From the sequence record PV419677.1: a stretch of 64,000 bases of DNA. One strand, given 5' to 3'. Both the position numbers and the translations under genes were made by a program. Under the pieces are notes generated by a model. It did not search any database, had not been told where the DNA came from, and saw nothing but the letters and a program-made list of their open reading frames with translations. Shown piece after piece: positions 2,870-55,167 of this stretch (position 1 is the stretch's first letter; each line of letters opens with the position of its first letter). Origin of the DNA: a phage.

Positions 2870-3814
2870 TTAATAAAATTCAGCAATATTTGCAGTTAGT
2901 TTAGACAGACCAGACTTAACAAAGTAAGGATAAACTTTACTTTTGGCTGGGATAACGTAGTTATTATATCGTTCTAAGATTGAAGCGGATATTTCCGCTG
3001 GGATAAAGTCCATATCAATCAACAATTGGTTTTCACAGAATCTATTATATTGCTCTTCTGTTAAAAGCGTTTTCAAAACGTCATGGTCGTAATAATTGAG
3101 TGCAATTTGTTCAAGCTCAGCAGCGCGGGTCGGTGGGGTGCGTTCACCTTCTTCACGAGTGTAATAAAAATCACCACGAACCTTGATGCTTGACACGTTA
3201 TCTTTTTTGTCACCTTTAACAACCTTTGTCACGCAATCCATAAGAGCATCGCCTGATTTAGTTTTGACATATTTTTTCTGCATCGGTGACCATTGTTTTA
3301 CCCCAGGGAATTTATGCAACTGGGTAAAGTCGCCATCCGAAGAAACAACCATAACCGGATGTCCGAGACCAGTGAGCAATTTCGTTAATACTGCAATATG
3401 GTCGTCAGCCTCAATTTTATCCATATTCATCACGATGTAAGGCATATGTTTTTCCATTTCATCAATGATGATATGCATGGCAGCGTGTAGACCTTCCCAA
3501 TCAAATTGTGACTCTTCACGAGCTTTTGCACGGTTTTTCTTATAATAATAAGATTTCGTGCGTCGCCAATAACCATTCTTCGAATTATCAACACAAATAA
3601 TTGGGACTGTATAACCGAGCTTTTTAAACTGTACAATGTTTTTTCTGATAGAGTTCAGAACCAGATGTCTGGTCATTGCGGTTGTCACCTTAGGGAAGCC
3701 CGCGTCTTTACCGAATTCCTGGAAGGCTGCTGCCATGATGAGCTGACTAAAATCGAGTAACTGAAAACCATCTTTTTGACGGTCTTCTTCAGGGAGTAAA
3801 AAATCTAAATTCAT
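2870..3814 (-). CDS. rnh: RNase H / 5'-3' exonuclease
   Basis: 314 aa; motifs YYKKNRAKAREES, SSDGDFTQLH as in T4 RNase H (305 aa). Confidence 0.9.
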   Translation of the reverse strand: MNLDFLLPEEDRQKDGFQLLDFSQLIMAAAFQEFGKDAGFPKVTTAMTRHLVLNSIRKNIVQFKKLGYTVPIICVDNSKNGYWRRTKSYYYKKNRAKAREESQFDWEGLHAAMHIIIDEMEKHMPYIVMNMDKIEADDHIAVLTKLLTGLGHPVMVVSSDGDFTQLHKFPGVKQWSPMQKKYVKTKSGDALMDCVTKVVKGDKKDNVSSIKVRGDFYYTREEGERTPPTRAAELEQIALNYYDHDVLKTLLTEEQYNRFCENQLLIDMDFIPAEISASILERYNNYVIPAKSKVYPYFVKSGLSKLTANIAEFY

Positions 3815-46888: not shown

Positions 46889-47392
46889 TTAGTTAATACC
46901 TTGGCGTGCTTTCTCTTTAGCTACACATTTATTAATATAGCTCAGACGGTTTTGAGCAGAACGCTGATACATATCACGATACTCATTAGCTTTTGGAGAA
47001 CCAGCCTCTGCTGCCTGATAAGCTTCCGCGCGCATGATGTTTATCTGCATATTGATGTATGACATGCAGACCTGTGAAATCTGGTTAACAGTATCCAGGT
47101 CATTTTGGCGCTTGGTTTCTGCTTCCAGTTTAGCAATGATTTCGTCATGCTTCGCAGCTTGTTCGCGTTTGTACTCAATTTCACGTTGAGCATATTTCGC
47201 GCAGTTATTTCCACATTGATTGTTGTCGCGTTTGTAGATAAGTCCAGTACCACCTTTGAAATCAAAGGAACCATTATGCACCTGACGGTCTGCAGCAATT
47301 CGCGCTTTACCAATCTCATTGGCATTAACAACATCGCCCTGGTAAGCACAACCAGATAGCAGCATAACAGCTGCGATAGCTAACTTTTTCAT
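46889..47392 (-). CDS. putative lipoprotein
   Basis: 167 aa from ATG at 47392 (GAGGA Shine-Dalgarno); signal peptide with lipobox LSGC; occupies T4 beta-gt/42 slot. Confidence 0.6.
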   Translation of the reverse strand: MKKLAIAAVMLLSGCAYQGDVVNANEIGKARIAADRQVHNGSFDFKGGTGLIYKRDNNQCGNNCAKYAQREIEYKREQAAKHDEIIAKLEAETKRQNDLDTVNQISQVCMSYINMQINIMRAEAYQAAEAGSPKANEYRDMYQRSAQNRLSYINKCVAKEKARQGIN

Positions 47393-47402
47393 TGTATTTT
47401 CC

Positions 47403-47546
47403 TCAATTAAAACATTCATAGCGGGCTTGGAGTCCCAAAAATATCCAACCCAAAATTAAAGTTGGAGTCATATGTGGAGTCATTATTGCCCAATAGATTG
47501 ACATACTAAAAAATGCAATCAGTACAATAATTGTAATTATCTTCAT
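47403..47546 (-). CDS. small membrane protein (47 aa)
   Basis: ATG overlaps imm stop (ATGA); hydrophobic. Confidence 0.35.
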   Translation of the reverse strand: MKIITIIVLIAFFSMSIYWAIMTPHMTPTLILGWIFLGLQARYECFN

Positions 47547-47785
47547 TTGGTTTCCTTGATGATAATTACATGTGCATTTGATTTACGCTCAGCAACGAGT
47601 GCCCAGATAAATGCAATAAACCATCCGACCATTGTCCAACCTAACAGGAGGTTAACAAAGAAGATTCCGCAATTACTTTTGGTTCCTCGCAGTAGCGCGA
47701 TAATCCACGGCAGAAAATATGCCAGTGCAGCCAGGAAGAAAGAACCAGCACCAAGAACAACAGTACCTGCAATTAATGTTTCCAT
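47543..47785 (-). CDS. imm: superinfection immunity protein Imm
   Basis: 80 aa; two TM segments with YFLPWIIA...LLLGWTMVGWFIAFIWAL signature of Imm family. Confidence 0.8.
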   Translation of the reverse strand: METLIAGTVVLGAGSFFLAALAYFLPWIIALLRGTKSNCGIFFVNLLLGWTMVGWFIAFIWALVAERKSNAHVIIIKETK

Positions 47786-47805
47786 TTTAATATCCTTAAT
47801 TTAAT

Positions 47806-47856
47806 CATCAGTAGTTGATGGAGTAATCATACGGCAATCCTTTGCTGTTGTAAACA
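47806..47856 (-). promoter_or_regulatory. early promoter upstream of imm
   Basis: GTTTACA-N17-TATGAT and AUCAACUACUGAUGA leader. Confidence 0.5.
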
Positions 47857-47857
47857 C

Positions 47858-48864
47858 TTAAAAATCAAACATATCAAAAAGAGATGCTTTTTTCTCGTAA
47901 TCAACCTTAGCTGCTTCAGAGAACCCTGTTAACGGTTTGACAAAAGTCTTCTGGAACAGTGTGTTGTAGTCCATCCACTGCAAGACTTGGTCACGGATTT
48001 CAATCGGGAGTTCAATCCCAGATGGCCATGCAATCACGGTTTCACCAAACGGGTTGCCGACTTTAAGAGGAAGTACATACACCTTTTCCCCTTCCATGAT
48101 TTGTGGAACAGTCTTCAGACCTTTAGTTGCACGCATATATGCAAGCACACCTTTGATATGAGCCGGGCACTTAAATCCAGGGAAACCACCCTCATTATAT
48201 TTCTGAATGTTGTTAACCGATGATACACCTGCGATGGTCATGTAGTTAAGCTCATTAAATTCCTTATTGAATTCCTTGAAGTATGTCTGCAGAGATTCTT
48301 CACCTTCTTGCAGCATGCGACGGATACATTCTTTCAGAGCTTTCTGACATGCTTTTGGTGTGCTCGACTTTTGAGTTTCCAGACCCATGATTTTCAGTTT
48401 CGGAACAGCATATCGTGTGCCTTCCATATCGTACACATTCAGAGCATAACGCTTCTTCGCTGTCCAGAATCCACCAACACCTTTAGAACCAAGCGGAGGA
48501 CATGCAATCGCTTCACGGTCCATAAACATAAGGTGCTGTTTGTTGTTCATGTATTCAGCCAGTTCACGGAAAGCTTTATCGATTGCCGGTTCCAGACGGT
48601 CTTTCGCAAACTTGTCCATGAAGTCAACCAGGTGGTTTGTATCGCGGAATTTCGATTCGCCACCAACCTTTTTAATCAGGTTATCGCACTGGATATAAAT
48701 GGAGTCAGTATCGCCATAGAATACATATGTTTCACCACTTGTACCACAAACACTATCAAAATATTCGTTAACTTTACGCTCAATCCACTGCAATGCAAGT
48801 TGTCCGAAAGATGTAATCGCGGTTGCATTTCGCAGGTCAAAGTAACGGAACCAGATATTTCCCA
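47858..48864 (-). CDS. 43: DNA polymerase gp43, subunit 43B exon 2 (motif C YGDTDS to C-terminus)
   Basis: frame begins GNIWFRYFDLRNATAI..., contains YGDTDS; collinear with T4 gp43 residues about 560-898. Confidence 0.8.
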
Positions 48865-49095
48865 CAATTTTGTTCAGTTGAAGTCGTTAATTTCAACCCG
48901 GAATTATATCCAGCTGCATGTTGCCATGCAGAGCAGACTATATCATCATCTTTCGATGCCATGCGCTTCCAGCCACTTGGCTGTACTCCTTTCGGATAGT
49001 CGTTGCACGTTCCTATAATAGGCTTCGCTCAGGATTGTCTCATAGAGATGTCCCCTGAATTCACATGGTTTAAAGTGCGCCGGAATACTTGGTTA
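48865..49095 (-). mobile_element. candidate ORF-less group I self-splicing intron in gene 43
   Basis: 231 nt between ...CYGA/L and GNIW...; P1 (exon GUGCGU : intron GCGCAC, U.G at splice site), P7 (GACUA / UAGUC within GAUAUAGUC), GNRA hairpin, terminal G; splicing restores frame. Confidence 0.55.
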
Positions 49096-49267
49096 ACGCA
49101 CCATAACAACTGTTGATAAGCAATTTGCGGTTAATCTGTGCAGTATTTGCCGCAATTTCTGCCATTTGCGAATTATGCAAATGACTTTCCAAATCCGCCC
49201 TTGATAATGTTTTTAAATATGCAATTTGCGAATCATCAAAATCTATATTATAATCAATATTCATCAT
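49096..49267 (-). CDS. 43: DNA polymerase gp43, subunit 43B exon 1 (motif B region)
   Basis: MMNIDYN...NRKLLINSCYGA matches T4 gp43 around KILINSLYGALG; ATG overlaps stop of the homing endonuclease gene. Confidence 0.7.
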
Positions 49268-50082
49268 TTATTCCTACAGTTATCAAAATGCCAACGTTTC
49301 ATGCCTGCTAATATACCTTCTTTTCCACAATGTGGACAAACTGCTTTAACCTCTTTTGCTTGTTTCCAATATTCCTTTCTGGCATCAGAAATAGCTTGAT
49401 TGTGTTCATCTGAATTTTTGTGTCCCAATCTGGTTTTAACGATATCTGGATTTTTAGCAACACGTTCTTTCATAAACTCAGATTTCGCTGCACGCATTTC
49501 TGGTGTCCAGGCATCGGAGCATTTTTGTTTGTGGTCGTCGGATATAGTTCCATTTTTCAGCACAGACTCATTGTTCTTATAATGTTCAATTAAACTTTGT
49601 GAACGTTTTTGACAAGTTTCTACCGAGTGTTTTGTTCCAGTATTTTTAATTGAGGCGATTTTAAAATTATCAATTGAAATTTTATTGTAATAATCTGGAT
49701 TTTGGGCCCGGGTATATTTGATACTATCGGAAACCTTTTTGGCAACTACTGGATTATGCATCGCATTTGGTAAATTTAAAGAATTGACATAATCCCACCC
49801 ACCTTTACCACCTGGGGTTAAATTATATGTGTCAGTACGTGTGATAAATTCATTATCAACTAATTTGGCTTCAAGTGCATATGCATCATCTTCGTTATCA
49901 AATTCAGCAATGATTGATTTGACCAGGTTATGCTTGCCATATTTTTCTTTCGCAGCTTTCACAATGGGACCCGAACCCAGATAATCATCCAACAAATTAT
50001 AAGATTCACATTTATGAACTCCAATGTAAATCTTATCGTTCACTAAATTTTTAATTTGATAAACAGTGTATACATTTTTCAT
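49264..50082 (-). CDS. GIY-YIG homing endonuclease inserted in gene 43
   Basis: 272 aa; VYTVYQIKNLVNDKIYIGV GIY-YIG motif, NLTPGGKGG, C-terminal zinc finger CPHCGKEGILAGMKRWHFDNC. Confidence 0.8.
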   Translation of the reverse strand: MKNVYTVYQIKNLVNDKIYIGVHKCESYNLLDDYLGSGPIVKAAKEKYGKHNLVKSIIAEFDNEDDAYALEAKLVDNEFITRTDTYNLTPGGKGGWDYVNSLNLPNAMHNPVVAKKVSDSIKYTRAQNPDYYNKISIDNFKIASIKNTGTKHSVETCQKRSQSLIEHYKNNESVLKNGTISDDHKQKCSDAWTPEMRAAKSEFMKERVAKNPDIVKTRLGHKNSDEHNQAISDARKEYWKQAKEVKAVCPHCGKEGILAGMKRWHFDNCRNK

Positions 50083-50094
50083 AATGTCTCCTTA

Positions 50095-50135
50095 ATTTAA
50101 AAATATTTTAGCGCGCTTCCTTGCGCTTGTACAAC
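50095..50135 (-). promoter_or_regulatory. promoter-like element for homing endonuclease gene
   Basis: minus strand GTTGTACA...TAAAAT then GGAGA Shine-Dalgarno inside 53-nt spacer between 43A stop and endonuclease ATG. Confidence 0.35.
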
Positions 50136-51659
50136 TTAAAGATGGTTTAAAAGGTCTTTAATCAATTCACTATTACGTTGTGCCGCCAACATCTTTTTCT
50201 TTTCGGTTTTTCGTTGATTAAAAACTTTCTCAACTTCTGTCGGAATAATACCTGCAACATCTTTAAAATACATCATGCCATTTGGAGCACAACTAAATGT
50301 ATCAGATGGACGGTCAGCAGTTCCTGCGATGTATTCATACATCGGCGCAGGAGCAAATGAACCGGCAATCGTTTCTGGACTGATGTTAATCTGTCGGATG
50401 ATGCTCGGATACAGAGATGTCAAGTCACAGCTCATAACGTATTTGTATGCGTTCGGAATCGGTTCCTTAACAAATGCACCAGGGAATGATTGACGAACAT
50501 GCGATTTGGTTTCCGGAATGACTTTGTTTTGAGTCTTCAGGCTGTTAAAGATAATCGCATCCCAAGTTTTGATTGGGCTGAATACAGACTGAATCTGCAT
50601 TTTTGCGTAATAACCCATTGACTGGCTAAGGTTAATAAACTGGCGCTTACGGTCAATCTGTACAACACGATAAACATCGATGATGTTATAAGAAATATAC
50701 CGTTGGTGATTTGATTCACGCAGTTTAGAAATCGGACCATCATACGGGAGTTTACCAACACCCAGCTCAGATTCCGCAACATAATCCAACGAATAAGACG
50801 GTTGGTTTGTGAAGCTGAACTTTTTATACAGGTCCAGATAATCCAGAACAGAGATACCCAGAATCTGAATGATTTCTTGTTCTTCACCAAAGCCGTTGTT
50901 AATTACTTTAACTTTTGTACGACGATGTGGGCTCAGACGTTTTGCTGTGGCTTCACCAAATACATTTTTAAGGCGGTTGTAGATATACGGAATATCAAAC
51001 TTCTCGATGTTCCAACCAGTTAACATAACCGGAGTTTTCTCGTTCCAGAATACCAAATACTGCTGGAGCATTTCTTCTTCTGAATCGAAAGCCATATAAA
51101 CAATTTTTTCCAGGATTTCTTCAGGGACTTCATCGCCGCCATCTTCTTGCAGCTTGGCAGCAATATCAATAGACCATTGCTCCACAGTGGCGTATGGTGA
51201 GCTCAAAAGGTCAAAGACATAGAATTTATCGTCTACCGAATCATAGTGCGTCAGGGCATCAATAGGGTGACGTGCTTCAGACGGCTCAGGGAACCCATCC
51301 GGAGATGTCACCTCGATATCGAAGTTAGCCACACGGATTTTACTTGAATCGTATTTGATTTCGTGTGGATAACGGTCGGACAAGTATGCGAGTTTAAAGT
51401 CATCCATACCCATAGCTTCGAGACCCATGTCATTCATTCGCTTCATCCACTGGGATGCATCACGCATGGAATCGAATTCTTTTTTCACACAACCTTTATT
51501 ATAGATGTCTGTATACTTTGCAGCCTGGTCTTCGCGAGCATGCATAAACAAGCATGGAGCATAAGGGATTTCACGAACACGTTCATGACCATTCTTGTCA
51601 ATGTATCGTTCAAGCAGATTGTCACCGATTTGTTCGATAGTTAAATAAAATTCTTGCAT
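50136..51659 (-). CDS. 43: DNA polymerase gp43, subunit 43A (exonuclease and palm motif A)
   Basis: 507 aa; collinear with T4 gp43 N-terminal about 510 residues incl. FDIEVT, SLYPSIIRQ; ends with stop before the motif B region. Confidence 0.9.
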   Translation of the reverse strand: MQEFYLTIEQIGDNLLERYIDKNGHERVREIPYAPCLFMHAREDQAAKYTDIYNKGCVKKEFDSMRDASQWMKRMNDMGLEAMGMDDFKLAYLSDRYPHEIKYDSSKIRVANFDIEVTSPDGFPEPSEARHPIDALTHYDSVDDKFYVFDLLSSPYATVEQWSIDIAAKLQEDGGDEVPEEILEKIVYMAFDSEEEMLQQYLVFWNEKTPVMLTGWNIEKFDIPYIYNRLKNVFGEATAKRLSPHRRTKVKVINNGFGEEQEIIQILGISVLDYLDLYKKFSFTNQPSYSLDYVAESELGVGKLPYDGPISKLRESNHQRYISYNIIDVYRVVQIDRKRQFINLSQSMGYYAKMQIQSVFSPIKTWDAIIFNSLKTQNKVIPETKSHVRQSFPGAFVKEPIPNAYKYVMSCDLTSLYPSIIRQINISPETIAGSFAPAPMYEYIAGTADRPSDTFSCAPNGMMYFKDVAGIIPTEVEKVFNQRKTEKKKMLAAQRNSELIKDLLNHL

Positions 51660-51720
51660 TTGGTTTCCTTTATAGTCGAGTGATTGACTTTTGTTTTATG
51701 ACTTGATGTTATTATACTAC

Positions 51721-51742
51721 AAAAGGGACCGAAGTCCCTTTG
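51721..51742 (-). terminator. putative terminator hairpin
   Basis: GGGAC-UUCG-GUCCC hairpin with short U-run upstream of gene 43. Confidence 0.4.
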
Positions 51743-51744
51743 CT

Positions 51745-51972
51745 TTAAATTTCTATTGTACGTCGTTCGATGGTTGGATTACCCTTTTCATCTTTAGTTC
51801 TAACCATAGCCTGGAAGACTCTCTGTCCAGGATGCAATAATTTCTTGAGTTCCTTTTGAAATTCTATTTGAAGTTCTTCGGAAAGGTCAAAAATAGTTTG
51901 ATTTGGGGAAAGTCCATATATTTCTTTAAGGCGTTCGCATGTTTCAATTTCATGCTTCATATCAATTACCAA
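51745..51972 (-). CDS. hypothetical protein
   Basis: 75 aa between regA and 43. Confidence 0.45.
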   Translation of the reverse strand: MVIDMKHEIETCERLKEIYGLSPNQTIFDLSEELQIEFQKELKKLLHPGQRVFQAMVRTKDEKGNPTIERRTIEI

Positions 51973-52330
51973 TTGTGTATTTGGCTACAAGCTTCCAGTC
52001 GTCTTTTTGTTTAAAGGAGATAACACGGAAGTTGTTTGTTACTGCGAACAATTCATTATGCTCTTCTTCTTTGATAGTGATTAAGCCCCAGTCTTCGAGC
52101 AGTTGAGCAATGGAATCACGGCGCTGATAGTCTTCACCATCAATATCCACCTGGCGACCATCCATGCGCAGCATTTCTTTGAAGTGAACAATATAATAAC
52201 GGCCTTGCTTCTGGAGGATGTGGCAGCTCTGGTACAGCACACGGTCTTTATTATTTGCGATGCCCATACGGGTCAGAGTTTCTTTAACTTTCAGGAAGTC
52301 TTCAGGTTGCTTTAATGTAATTTCAATCAT
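51962..52330 (-). CDS. regA: translational repressor RegA
   Basis: 122 aa, same length as T4 RegA; near-identical to recalled sequence. Confidence 0.9.
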   Translation of the reverse strand: MIEITLKQPEDFLKVKETLTRMGIANNKDRVLYQSCHILQKQGRYYIVHFKEMLRMDGRQVDIDGEDYQRRDSIAQLLEDWGLITIKEEEHNELFAVTNNFRVISFKQKDDWKLVAKYTIGN

Positions 52331-52331
52331 T

Positions 52332-52910
52332 TTACCATTCCAATATTTGTTTTTTAATTTCTTTTTGTTCTTTCACATTACTGGTAACGGTCTTTAAGAA
52401 TTCATCCGTCACCAGACCTTTTGTCTTTTTCAAAACATCTTTAAGACTACCTTTGGCTTTCAATGTTTCCATATACATCAAAGCATCATCTGCATTAATT
52501 GTATAATATTTCATTAAAAGCTTTAACACAAGCTGGACGCTGACTACATCCGGCTCAGCCTTCGCCCATTTACCATAACGCTTGCCTTGCGGAACTGCAT
52601 GCAGCAAATAATTATAATGCTGTTGGTCTGTTAACCCGGAACCGATTAAGTTCATCACGTTTACCTGCATGATGCAATCGACATGTTGGCTCAACGCGTT
52701 TTCCAACCAGAATTTATTGTAGTTTTCCGATTGAATCAGGTTCCGTGGTTTTTTGCTAACGGTTATGTCATTAAGAATCGCAAACAATTCATTTTCTGCT
52801 TTCTCTTTGTATGAATCGGACAATTCCTGAATTTTGTTAAAGTCGCGTGATTTCCACGCAACCTCATGTTCGTTTAATTGAACGTCATCACCAAAGAGAC
52901 TTACAGCCAT
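52332..52910 (-). CDS. 62: clamp loader small subunit gp62
   Basis: 192 aa (T4 187 aa); synteny regA-62-44. Confidence 0.85.
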   Translation of the reverse strand: MAVSLFGDDVQLNEHEVAWKSRDFNKIQELSDSYKEKAENELFAILNDITVSKKPRNLIQSENYNKFWLENALSQHVDCIMQVNVMNLIGSGLTDQQHYNYLLHAVPQGKRYGKWAKAEPDVVSVQLVLKLLMKYYTINADDALMYMETLKAKGSLKDVLKKTKGLVTDEFLKTVTSNVKEQKEIKKQILEW

Positions 52911-53893
52911 TTCATTTCCCCAGCCAGTTGAGCAAACAGATAAGTCAAGTGAACTTCGGTATTGGCCGCAATGCCATGGTACTGATTATTCTCACCTACA
53001 ATCTCATACATGCGGATGATACTTGCACCAGTCAGTTTGCCATACATTTCATCAGCCAGCTTTGCAATGAAGCTTGAATAATCATTTGCATGCTTAGGAG
53101 CCAGACCACGGAGAACTTTAAAGTTACGGTCCTTAAGGGCATCAATCACATCATCAATTGGCGTGCGATTGTTTGTCACGATACTCAGAATACCAGAATC
53201 GATAACACCCTTTGCAGAGTAACGGTCAAGCTCGTTAATTGTCTTACGCAGGTCCGGGAAGTTATGCTTAACCAGAGCAGCAACAACTTTCAGGTCTTCG
53301 ATTTCAACGCCTTCGTTTTTACATATCGCAACCGCACGATGAATCATCTCTTTCATCATAGTAGTCTGGTCAGCTGGAGTTGCTTCACCAAACTTAATTA
53401 CGCGACAACGAGACTGCAACGGAGTAATGATGCCATCGATATTGTTCGCGGTCATAATGATTGAACAGTTGCTCGAATAAGCTTCCATAAAGCTACGGAG
53501 GTGTCGTTGTGATTCTGCCAGACCTGCACGGTCGAACTCATCGATAACAATTACCTTACGGCGACCTTCGATTGATTTGGATGATGCAAAGCGAGTCAAT
53601 TCATTACGCACAAAGTCAATTCGGCAATCGGAGCCGTTAACAAACAGCATATCAGAATTCGTATCTGCGCACATAGCTTTTGCAACTGTTGTCTTACCAG
53701 TACCAGGGGAACTACTGACCAGAATCAAGTTAGGAATCAAACCTTTTTTAACAATCGCCTCTAATGTTTCTTTATCGTGAGCCGGGAGAATACACTCTGA
53801 TAATGTACCTGGGCGGTATTTTTGTTCCCACATGAAGTCGGATTCGTTGACTGTCAAACCGTTAATTACTGTTGCCATTATTATTTTCCTCAT
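52901..53893 (-). CDS. 44: clamp loader large subunit gp44 (AAA+)
   Basis: 330 aa (T4 319 aa); Walker A SPGTGKTT. Confidence 0.9.
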   Translation of the reverse strand: MRKIIMATVINGLTVNESDFMWEQKYRPGTLSECILPAHDKETLEAIVKKGLIPNLILVSSSPGTGKTTVAKAMCADTNSDMLFVNGSDCRIDFVRNELTRFASSKSIEGRRKVIVIDEFDRAGLAESQRHLRSFMEAYSSNCSIIMTANNIDGIITPLQSRCRVIKFGEATPADQTTMMKEMIHRAVAICKNEGVEIEDLKVVAALVKHNFPDLRKTINELDRYSAKGVIDSGILSIVTNNRTPIDDVIDALKDRNFKVLRGLAPKHANDYSSFIAKLADEMYGKLTGASIIRMYEIVGENNQYHGIAANTEVHLTYLFAQLAGEMKWL

Positions 53894-54440
53894 TAAATTT
53901 TTTAACTATTTTATTCAATTCATTGGCTGAATAATTATACCCATAGTTCCGCAAAAGCGTACTGAACTTACCGCGCTTTGGTTTATCCAGCTCTATCCAA
54001 ATTTTTAACAGTTCATCATAGTGATTCCAAACTTCAGAACGCTGCCATAACGAACAATTCAATTTATGTGTTTTACTAAATGTTCGAGATACACCAGTAC
54101 GTGATTCAGACATTTGTCTACGAGTTTCTTCTGTATGAAAATCAACTCCACCATTACCGCCTGGATGAACATTAACACATTTATTTCCATATTCAATAAG
54201 ACCTTTGGCAACAATCAAAGATTCATAGTGTTTAGCTTCTTTGAAAGTTTTTACTTCTTTAATAATTTTTGTATCGAATAACCAAAGCCCAGGAATTAAA
54301 TCATTTTCTTTTCGACAAGCTTTAATAAACGTTCCACTGCCGTGATATTCTTCACCGGTCAAACGATGTCTACCAAAATAATGATAAACATCGTTTGATG
54401 CAGTATTTGTTATTTTTGTATGATAACAAATGTATGACAT
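53862..54440 (-). CDS. putative GIY-YIG (Seg-like) homing endonuclease between 45 and 44
   Basis: 192 aa from ATG at 54440 (GGAGA Shine-Dalgarno); SYICYH...VYHYFG and VHPGGNGG resemble Seg-family motifs; overlaps gp44 start by 32 nt. Confidence 0.5.
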   Translation of the reverse strand: MSYICYHTKITNTASNDVYHYFGRHRLTGEEYHGSGTFIKACRKENDLIPGLWLFDTKIIKEVKTFKEAKHYESLIVAKGLIEYGNKCVNVHPGGNGGVDFHTEETRRQMSESRTGVSRTFSKTHKLNCSLWQRSEVWNHYDELLKIWIELDKPKRGKFSTLLRNYGYNYSANELNKIVKKFNEENNNGNSN

Positions 54441-54471
54441 TTTATTCTCCATGGGGCCGAAGCCCCATTTA

Positions 54472-55167
54472 TTAATCTTGGAATTCGTGGCTAGAGCCTT
54501 GTTCCATCGCAATCACATAGCTTGCTTGTGTGCCTTCAAACTTCGTAGCAAATTTATCATCTTTCGCCCAAAGCATAACACGGTAATCAGCCGGAATCAT
54601 TTTCATGTTCAGTTTGTTAATGATAAATTTAAACGCTGCATCGCCTTCGTAGTCGCCACATACCAGGGAATACAATGGACGTGCTAATTCTTTATCTTCG
54701 AGCTGGTTATAACCATGGATAACAATCTTACCGTCTTTGTTGGTGATTGCAAAGGTGTCCAGAGACAAACCACCAGCCACACGCAGAAGCTGCTGCAGGT
54801 CACTACCTTTCAGGTCGAAAATAACCTTAGCTACCGGGAAAGGAATCTTTTTAGCAGGGAACACGATAGTGCTCGGGTCTGCAGCTGGCCAGTGAATCGT
54901 TGAACGTTGGTCTTTGATAATGATGTTTGATGCGTCTTCAGCCAGAGATACTTCAGCTTGGTCAGTTACCAGGCCCAGGATACTTAAGAAGCCGTTCAGG
55001 TCATAAATCGCAGCTTCAAAGTCAATTGTATCATTGATTTCGGCTTCGCCATATGACGCTCCAGTTACGGAACGAGTCAGGATGGTATTACCTGGCTTAA
55101 GCATAATGCCAGAGTAAATGGAAGTAAAGTTTTTCAATACCGCGATTGTGTCCTTTGAGAATTTCAT
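54472..55167 (-). CDS. 45: sliding clamp gp45
   Basis: 231 aa (T4 228 aa); N-terminus MKFSKDTIAVLKNF...IYDLNGFL matches recalled gp45. Confidence 0.9.
   Translation of the reverse strand: MKFSKDTIAVLKNFTSIYSGIMLKPGNTILTRSVTGASYGEAEINDTIDFEAAIYDLNGFLSILGLVTDQAEVSLAEDASNIIIKDQRSTIHWPAADPSTIVFPAKKIPFPVAKVIFDLKGSDLQQLLRVAGGLSLDTFAITNKDGKIVIHGYNQLEDKELARPLYSLVCGDYEGDAAFKFIINKLNMKMIPADYRVMLWAKDDKFATKFEGTQASYVIAMEQGSSHEFQD

Follow-up and report, generated by a model that had tools for sequence, protein, structure and literature searches.

The gene for the DNA polymerase (gene 43) found on phage sequence record PV419677.1, of which a stretch of 64,000 nucleotides (nt) was analysed (hereafter the window, to whose numbering all coordinates refer), is divided into two cistrons, 43A and 43B, by a gene coding for a GIY-YIG homing endonuclease, while 43B itself is interrupted by a small group I intron devoid of any open reading frame (ORF). 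All genes of the gene 43 region lie on the minus strand and their features are collected in Table 1. We consider it highly likely that these parts form a composite selfish cassette which was copied into gene 43 of a Gaprivervirus-like Escherichia coli phage, yielding a split polymerase and relying on collaborative homing. Such an arrangement has already been published, for Aeromonas phage 25 in 2010, a precedent left unmentioned in the preliminary description of this DNA; no paper was found in the literature on the E. coli version of the cassette. The interval singled out in that description, 49096-50135, corresponds exactly to the spacer, the endonuclease gene and the first exon of 43B, and the 43A stop that it placed at 50136, like all its other coordinates, was exact upon re-reading of the sequence.

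Table 1. Positions of the features of the split gene 43 in the window
Feature	Position	Strand	Size	Remarks
43A cistron	50136..51659	-	507 amino acids (aa)	ORF; N-terminal part of a family-B DNA polymerase
43A imported 3' tail	50136..50208	-	last ~24 codons	divergent from contiguous relatives
Intercistronic spacer	50083..50135	-	53 nt	
Endonuclease gene	49264..50082	-	272 aa	free-standing Seg-type GIY-YIG homing endonuclease gene
43B exon 1	49096..49267	-	57 codons + 1 nt	covers the second fingers helix as far as motif B (…QINRKLLINSCYGA-L)
ORF-less group I intron	48865..49095	-	231 nt	phase 1 in the Leu codon of motif B (YGAL/GN)
43B exon 2	47858..48864	-		palm and thumb; coding resumes at GNIWFRYFDLRNA…
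Nearly invariant tract	48807..50338	-	1532 nt	cassette plus ~200 nt upstream and 58 nt downstream

The 43A product covers the exonuclease domain, part of the palm and the first fingers helix, matches the Pfam families DNA_pol_B_exo1 (4e-26) and DNA_pol_B (3e-14), and ends with a TAA codon (50138-50136). The split reported initially is borne out by the position of 43B, which lies in a different frame 868 nt away with the endonuclease gene in the gap. Counting a predicted spliced 43B product of 392 aa, the two products total 899 aa (507 + 392) versus 904 aa for the contiguous protein. On both sides of the break, the ends of the cistrons (43A …LLNHL, 43B MMNIDY…) align to fingers residues. Placed on RB69 gp43 using what we take to be the boundaries of its fingers domain, the break corresponds to residues ~506-514, at the tip of the fingers, and the polymerases of phages 25 and 44RR are broken at the same place. 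The initial estimate that about 13 fingers residues had been replaced was roughly right, as 12-13 residues of the contiguous proteins (RB69 gp43 ~504-516) are gone, but 7 new residues (NHL / MMNI) stand in their place, hence a net loss of 5 aa relative to the closest contiguous relative and of 6 aa relative to RB69.

The spacer between 43A and the endonuclease gene had been described as bearing both a promoter-like and a Shine-Dalgarno signal. The latter holds, with an AAGGAG sequence (50093-50088) lying 5 nt ahead of the endonuclease ATG at 50082. A sigma-70-like site was also recognized (TGTACA at 50133-50128 and TAAAAT at 50110-50105, 17 nt apart, 9/12 positions matching), but taken alone it does not exceed chance, 13 such sites being found in the region versus 6.6 expected, and it gains weight solely because similar sites recur in three other spacers. 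In G2285, phage 25 and 44RR, where the spacer measures 44 to 55 nt, it contains a sense-strand sigma-70-like site matching at 9-10 of 12 positions, while ~0.2-0.7 such sites are expected by chance per 150 nt, both strands included. All four spacers have a common layout in which the site begins at the 43A stop or immediately beyond it, has a hairpin inside, and precedes the Shine-Dalgarno sequence. This recurrence shows that the layout is conserved though the sequence is not. The GC hairpin of the window is short (50127-50110, 5 bp) and weak (z-score -0.75), whereas that of phage 25 is strong. No T4 late promoter (TATAAATA) was seen by eye in the spacer within two mismatches.

The identification of the ORF following the spacer as a GIY-YIG endonuclease gene was confirmed by matches to PHROG 314 'homing endonuclease' (E 2.7e-47) and to the Pfam GIY-YIG family (PF01541; 23 bits for a cut-off of 22.6). 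The protein aligns to the I-TevI structure 1MK0 and displays the motifs VYQI(8)…IYIG(19-21), with Y8, Y19, G21, E71 and N87 conserved in the family alignment, where the two motifs, E71 and N87 do not vary. In the region of the catalytic arginine R27 of I-TevI, the alignment to the endonuclease is gapped, and the family has an invariant H23 together with a Y34-G36-G38 motif there. A zinc-finger-like CxxC...H..C motif is present at the C-terminus. The TGA of the endonuclease gene (49266-49264) overlaps the ATG of 43B (49267-49265) as ATGA, as first described. The gene also deserves the qualifier free-standing that it had been given, being flanked by 53 nt of noncoding sequence upstream and none downstream, and being separated from the intron by polymerase-homologous coding sequence, i.e., exon 1. 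The GC content of the endonuclease region is 0.32-0.35 versus 0.40-0.46 in the flanks.

Using tblastn, full-length homologues of the endonuclease were found in Aeromonas phages 25 (39.5% identity over 99% of the length, E 3e-54), phiAS4 and Aes508 (45.6% each), as well as in the E. coli Mosigvirus vB_EcoM_G2285 (62.5%), all of them likewise lying between 43A and 43B. IMG/VR was also searched with the endonuclease alignment, and the strand carrying the endonuclease match was scanned for a polymerase motif in each of the 80 loci returned. Only two had one, the first belonging to phage 25 and the second being locus L014, described below, which indicates that the wider Seg family resides mostly elsewhere in genomes.

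Translation of 43B is predicted to begin at the ATG at 49267, 4 nt downstream of an AGGA sequence, and its coding sequence is interrupted by the intron 172 nt after the endonuclease gene. The ORF-less intron proposed at this position in the preliminary description is real, with an Rfam match to RF00028 (Intron_gpI) at 49127-48914 scoring 81.4 bits for a gathering score of 50 (E 3e-20) and a fold z-score of -3.2. An alignment of the introns of the window, G2285, PSD2002, phiAS4 and phage 25 gave a consensus fold of 57 pairs, 17 of which exhibit compensatory double changes, including two in P1. P1 itself pairs the exon sequence GUGCGU with the intron sequence GCGCAC, with the U.G pair at U49096 and the terminal G of the intron at 48865; 49096/48864 is the only junction that satisfies the reading frame, the U.G pair at the 5' splice site and the terminal intron G. 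The predicted spliced sequence is GCG T/TG GGA AAT, coding for A-L-G-N, and the mature junction would read GCGT-TGGGAAAT (slashes mark splice sites). The junction GCGT/…G/TGGG is the same in 4 of the 5 phages (window, G2285, PSD2002 and phage 25) and the insertion site is the same in all five. On RB69 gp43 the intron would fall right after motif B (K560…Y567-G568-A569-L570), at a site conserved in all T4-like phages. An Rfam scan of 47000-52500 returned no other intron-like RNA at E<=1.

The core of the intron is also 70-80% identical at the nucleotide level to unannotated or intron-like stretches located in unrelated genes of very different phages, among them a DnaB-like helicase gene of a Klebsiella phage and the RNA polymerase beta subunit gene of Pseudomonas phage 201phi2-1. 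Further matches were found in the terminase gene of DSS3_VP1 and in the crAss-like phage cr116_1. These resemblances suggest that the intron may belong to a widely travelling family of small ORF-less introns.

Comparison with a contiguous gene 43 of related phages, set beforehand as a check on the insertion, allowed its edges to be mapped. The flanks of the cassette match 24 phage records at 95-99%, those of Gaprivervirus members SP18, VR20 and EAWsc9 being 95-97% identical. Among the 26 records listed at 93-97% that were inspected, the match spans ~2.8 kilobases in all but TH15, which fits an uninterrupted gene 43. The gene of EAWsc9 was checked directly and is a single gene coding for 904 aa. 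Nucleotide identity to EAWsc9 is 97% as far as 50208, drops to ~80% in the 43A tail (50136-50208), collapses over the cassette and is restored to 98% from 48866, only a few bases from the 3' splice site. Consequently, the last ~24 codons of 43A and the whole of exon 1 came with the insert. The 43A tail is 96.7% identical to that of TH15, another split allele. Likewise, the first 33 aa of exon 1 are 36% identical to the native contiguous sequence, while exon 1 is 70% identical to that of TH15 and 52% to that of G2285 at the amino acid level; the low identity to the native sequence together with the high identity to split alleles implies that exon 1 arrived with the cassette. Exon 1 of the E. 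coli split alleles shows little similarity to that of the Aeromonas ones (24-36% over 33 aa), and their common descent is only suggested by a motif found in both, YL(K/N)(T/S)LS..(D/E)L.

Only one other record in the phage collection, G2285 (Mosigvirus, MK327933), contains the full cassette. Its 43A is followed by a spacer of 55 nt, its endonuclease counts 273 aa, and its exon 1 precedes an intron of 232 nt that is 89% identical to that of the window. However, G2285 belongs to another genus, its cassette is 70% identical overall and its 43A tail looks native. Its annotators declared themselves 'unable to determine intron/exon boundaries'. By analogy with the window, the gene (L001 1309-5110) can be resolved into 43A at 1309-2829, an endonuclease gene at 2885-3706, and a 43B cistron starting at 3706, with an intron of 232 nt bounded by the GCGT/…G/TGGG junction and an exon 2 reaching 5110.

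Other phages carry some of the parts only. Dhakavirus PSD2002 (OK335775) has an intron 90% identical to that of the window at the same site (L006 2544-2746) in an unsplit gene 43 without endonuclease gene; in its record, gene 43 is annotated as two separate 'DNA polymerase' coding sequences. Identity between the introns of the window, G2285 and PSD2002 reaches 89-90%, versus only 67-75% for their polymerase exons. In Escherichia virus TH15 (Gaprivervirus, MT446392), gene 43 is split at the same codon as in the window by a different GIY-YIG endonuclease gene of 232 aa (L007 2055-2753) that overlaps the end of 43A, with neither spacer nor intron. The two endonucleases are 44% identical in the catalytic domain only, their C-terminal halves being unrelated. 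The TH15 record is unannotated and its endonuclease gene is unique in the phage collection. Finally, phage 44RR has a split gene 43 with a 49-nt spacer and no endonuclease gene.

The population evidence for joint mobility of the cassette is the new contribution of our analysis. Metagenome contigs from four other samples encode an identical 272-aa endonuclease in the same context, with the same 43A stop and tail. Three of them (L010, L011 and L012) reach flanking polymerase sequence; the fourth (L013) ends inside the nearly invariant tract. Over the 1532 nt of that tract, L010 and L012 show 0 differences each with flank divergences of 4.1% and 3.7% (Poisson P 4e-28 and 1e-25, respectively), L011 shows 6 differences with a flank divergence of 6.3% (Poisson P 2e-33), and L013, in which the flank is absent, shows 7 differences in 1371 nt. 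The longest perfect run of L011, 50133-48861, covers almost exactly the spacer through the intron, and the downstream edge of the tract always falls 4-58 nt beyond the intron. Differences in the flanks are spaced by multiples of three, resembling a third-codon-position pattern. This nearly invariant tract set in diverged flanks, together with the conserved intron and the contrast in GC content, indicates that spacer, endonuclease gene, exon 1 and intron probably spread recently and laterally as one unit, which apparently is still spreading. The resemblance to collaborative homing noticed in the preliminary description thus receives independent support from the joint inheritance of a near-invariant block in three diverged polymerase backgrounds.

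The closest known system is that of Aeromonas phage 25, whose annotation lists 43A, a homing endonuclease and a 43B 'split by group IA2 intron'. The elements of phage 25 consist of an intercistronic untranslated sequence, the endonuclease gene seg43(25) and the intron 25.g43B, and are similar in phiAS4, Aes508 and related Aeromonas phages. Petrov, Ratnayaka and Karam (2010) reportedly observed cleavage of intron-free 43B sites by the endonuclease, as well as self-splicing of the intron. The window resembles phage 25 in the order of the parts, in its spacer with a hairpin and a promoter-like site, in a 43B start abutting the endonuclease stop, and in the phase-1 insertion of a group I intron without ORF at an identical point of the motif-B Leu codon. 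The endonucleases are homologous over their full length, zinc-finger-like C-terminus included. The two systems differ in that the window derives from an E. coli Gaprivervirus instead of an Aeromonas Tulanevirus, its endonuclease is only 40-46% identical to the Aeromonas enzymes, its intron is 231 nt long instead of 347 nt, its spacer hairpin has 5 bp rather than 9-10 bp, and its stop and start codons overlap as ATGA whereas they are 2 nt apart in phage 25. According to one review, the 43A and 43B products of phage 25 co-purify and display polymerase activity, and the split goes together with seg43(25) (PMC2988022). The phage 25 intron lacks an endonuclease of its own and was predicted to use the free-standing one for its mobility (PMC2993671); both of these 2010 reviews cite Petrov, Ratnayaka and Karam (J Mol Biol 2010).

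By homology with phage 25, which supports this view well, the polymerase of the window is probably made as two polypeptides. The cassette would read, in order, as a 43A stop, a spacer with a promoter-like site and a ribosome-binding site, a Seg-type endonuclease gene, a restart, ~170 nt of replacement polymerase sequence and the ORF-less intron. We propose that gp43A (507 aa) would be translated from the upstream message and the endonuclease from its own AAGGAG, while initiation of 43B at the ATGA overlap would either be coupled to translation of the endonuclease gene or use the AGGA just upstream. Self-excision of the intron would restore the motif-B codons, and gp43A and gp43B (392 aa) would associate noncovalently. 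Since the break is at the tip of the fingers, each piece would supply one of the two long fingers helices. When two phages infect one cell, the endonuclease would cleave a gene 43 lacking the intron in the partner genome, in or close to the intron-insertion site. The intron, exon 1, the endonuclease gene and the spacer would then be copied together as the break is repaired from the genome that has the cassette. As the intron interrupts the target, it would protect the genome that carries it. The shortness of the invariant tract downstream of the intron fits a break near the intron-insertion site.

The sequence holds nothing that contradicts this interpretation, but several points weigh against it. 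The Pfam GIY-YIG score is barely over the threshold, and the catalytic arginine of I-TevI has no clear counterpart in the endonuclease alignment. L010 and L012 have the same flank variants, so that the window and these contigs represent three distinct polymerase backgrounds rather than four or five. Splicing, the two polypeptides, their complex and the activity of the endonuclease are all extrapolated from a homologue of only 40% identity.

The elements could be mere passengers at present, with an endonuclease that is inactive or has another target, such as its own insertion point, and an intron linked to it by proximity. Many free-standing Seg enzymes indeed cut close to their own insertion site, and TH15, with a different endonuclease and no intron, and PSD2002, with the intron and no endonuclease, show that the parts can exist apart. 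We nevertheless find this improbable, because the invariant tract always holds both parts and ends shortly past the intron, and because the poorly conserved sequence of the fingers tip would make a poor target, unlike the intron-insertion site. The same codon boundary is moreover interrupted by another element in uncultured relatives carrying related endonucleases (see below), and the prediction made for the phage 25 intron also argues for a functional link.

We judge it very unlikely that the endonuclease gene resides in a larger or second intron, or that RNA is spliced across it to give one contiguous polymerase. The endonuclease genes of T4 td, nrdB and nrdD do lie inside group I introns (PMC2988022), and a group I intron is found close downstream here. 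However, the initial remark that the flanks of the endonuclease ORF (under 60 nt) are too short for an intron was correct, as they leave 53 nt upstream and none downstream, and the permissive Rfam scan detected no second intron. In addition, the sequence from the endonuclease gene to the intron is polymerase-coding and collinear with contiguous homologues, proper translation signals are present at the end of 43A and the start of 43B, and phage 44RR is split without any endonuclease gene.

That the two pieces are joined again after translation, by split-intein trans-splicing as in 'fractured genes', seems scarcely credible. Metagenomes are known to contain split inteins on either side of free-standing endonuclease genes (PMC2677866), and the Aes508 polymerase is annotated as intein-containing. 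A total of 899 aa versus 904 aa for the contiguous protein nonetheless leaves no room for an intein, …LLNHL and MMNIDY both align to fingers residues, and intein halves were not found at the ends of the 43A and 43B fragments by Pfam, which gave no Hint or intein match, or by length comparison. That the split stems from faulty assembly or sequencing, or that the gene has decayed into a pseudogene within a defective genome, is next to inconceivable: one stop codon could come from an error, and the annotators of the related G2285 did leave that gene unresolved, but contigs from four other samples with the same stop and tail, spacer and endonuclease rule out a sequencing error as the origin of the 43A stop, all ORFs are intact, flank differences between backgrounds are spaced in multiples of three, and the same architecture exists in the cultured and viable G2285 and phage 25.

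A different interruption of gene 43 was observed in four diverged types of uncultured T4-like phages, in which the gene is split with a related endonuclease gene or its remnant. In type 1 (L014, equal to L020), the endonuclease is 48% identical over its full length and the gap reads GCG TGA CCCGG GCT (L014 4865-4887), whereas in type 2 (L015, equal to L016), it is 52% identical over the N-terminal half and the gap reads GGA TAG CCAAA GGT (L015 4806-4828). Type 3 (L101, equal to L103, L104 and L106) encodes an endonuclease 39% identical over 165 aa, with the sequence GGT TAA CTACT GGT (L101 1131-1147), and type 4 (L102) retains a remnant without catalytic domain, with the sequence GGC TGA ATAAA GGA (L102 7389-7405). 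In all of them, 11 nt are inserted at the boundary between the motif-B Leu and Gly codons, the point occupied by the intron in the window. The geometry of this gap is constant while its sequence is variable, with a sense codon, a stop codon, 5 nt, and a codon synonymous or identical to the first, and the conserved (G/A)N.YFR..D resumes downstream in the new frame. Types 1 and 2 were each found in two assemblies and type 3 in several metagenomes; in a metagenome pattern search for the 11-nt gap, three of the seven hits were false positives. No intron was detected by Rfam in the loci scanned, L014 and L015, and all four types lack the space for one.

The simplest decoding of the 11-nt gap may be a short ribosomal hop over 8 nt, judging from the sequences. 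A -1 shift or a three-piece polymerase may also account for it; reading in the -1 frame, which stays open in each of the four types, would lengthen the product by 4 aa, but no slippery heptamer is present. Re-initiation after the gap is unlikely in L015 and L101, two of the four types, as neither has an ATG, GTG or TTG ahead of the conserved residues. The gapped alleles support the view that the codon boundary may be the target of this endonuclease family. They also raise the possibility, which we put forward tentatively, that the cassette of the window is one state of a modular and still active element associating an endonuclease with an exchangeable interrupter of its target site. Its plan would resemble that of T4 mobA/gene 60, the interrupter being the intron in the window and the 11-nt insertion in the four uncultured types.

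Bonocora et al. are said to have described in 2011 the T4 mobA/gene 39-gene 60 element with its 50-nt translational bypass. The window shares with this element the splitting of an essential replication gene, a shortened replacement region, an interrupter of the target and an insert ending just past the interrupter. The T4 element differs by its HNH endonuclease, its topoisomerase gene and its use of a ribosomal bypass instead of a self-splicing intron. In T4, according to Manning and Atkins (bioRxiv 10.1101/2022.08.31.505936), a stop with a C-terminal extension, an endonuclease gene and a restart with an N-terminal extension follow one another. Next comes a replacement region homologous to the parental DNA (67-81% identity) and coding for 2-7 fewer aa, and then the gene 60 bypass cassette, which prevents self-cleavage and at whose landing codon the insert stops.

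Collaborative, or trans, homing is exemplified by T4 mobE with the nrdB intron (PMC2790892), and by F-CphI of cyanophage psbA and the 2009 model of Bonocora and Shub, as these are summarised in a review (PMC2988022). As in those systems, the window has a free-standing endonuclease gene adjoining an endonuclease-less intron in a conserved part of an essential gene, with joint inheritance of both. However, the endonuclease gene is located here inside the host gene, which it splits, rather than between genes. The splitting itself recalls Aeromonas phage Aeh1, in which insertion of mobE in nrdA gives a split ribonucleotide reductase (PMC3045599). There too, the coding sequence of an essential enzyme is cut in two by a free-standing endonuclease gene, and the products of both cistrons reassemble, although that endonuclease is of the HNH type, the host gene is another one and no intron is present.

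Two other observations concern the window outside gene 43. A second Seg-like homing endonuclease ORF (53862-54512, minus strand; listed as 216 aa), with a match to PHROG 314 (E 5e-17), sits between genes 45 and 44, each of which it overlaps. Matches exist in 34 close relatives; among the records listed, only the two of VR20 cover it, and the six others lack ~535 bp there. Downstream of gene 43, small membrane-protein ORFs coincide with a weak Rfam match to the frnS small RNA (47440-47575, minus strand; 24 bits, E 0.66, gathering score 60), which is almost certainly due to chance.

The exact junctions determined here permit correct annotation of such genes, for which pipelines now give two or three 'DNA polymerase' fragments or leave the gene unresolved. 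The 11-nt gap may exceed the cassette itself in novelty and, if the ribosomal hop is true, gene 43 would hold a second natural translational-bypass system, linked by descent to the intron-based one. A composite selfish element first known from phages of fish pathogens also circulates in T4-like phages of E. coli, in at least two genera. The gene 43 of E. coli phages thus forms an allelic series that is contiguous in most, with the intron only in PSD2002, split by another endonuclease gene in TH15, and with the full cassette in the phage of the window and G2285. With this series, collaborative homing, replacement of one endonuclease by another and the tolerance of the polymerase to being split are testable by simple phage crosses in a model host.

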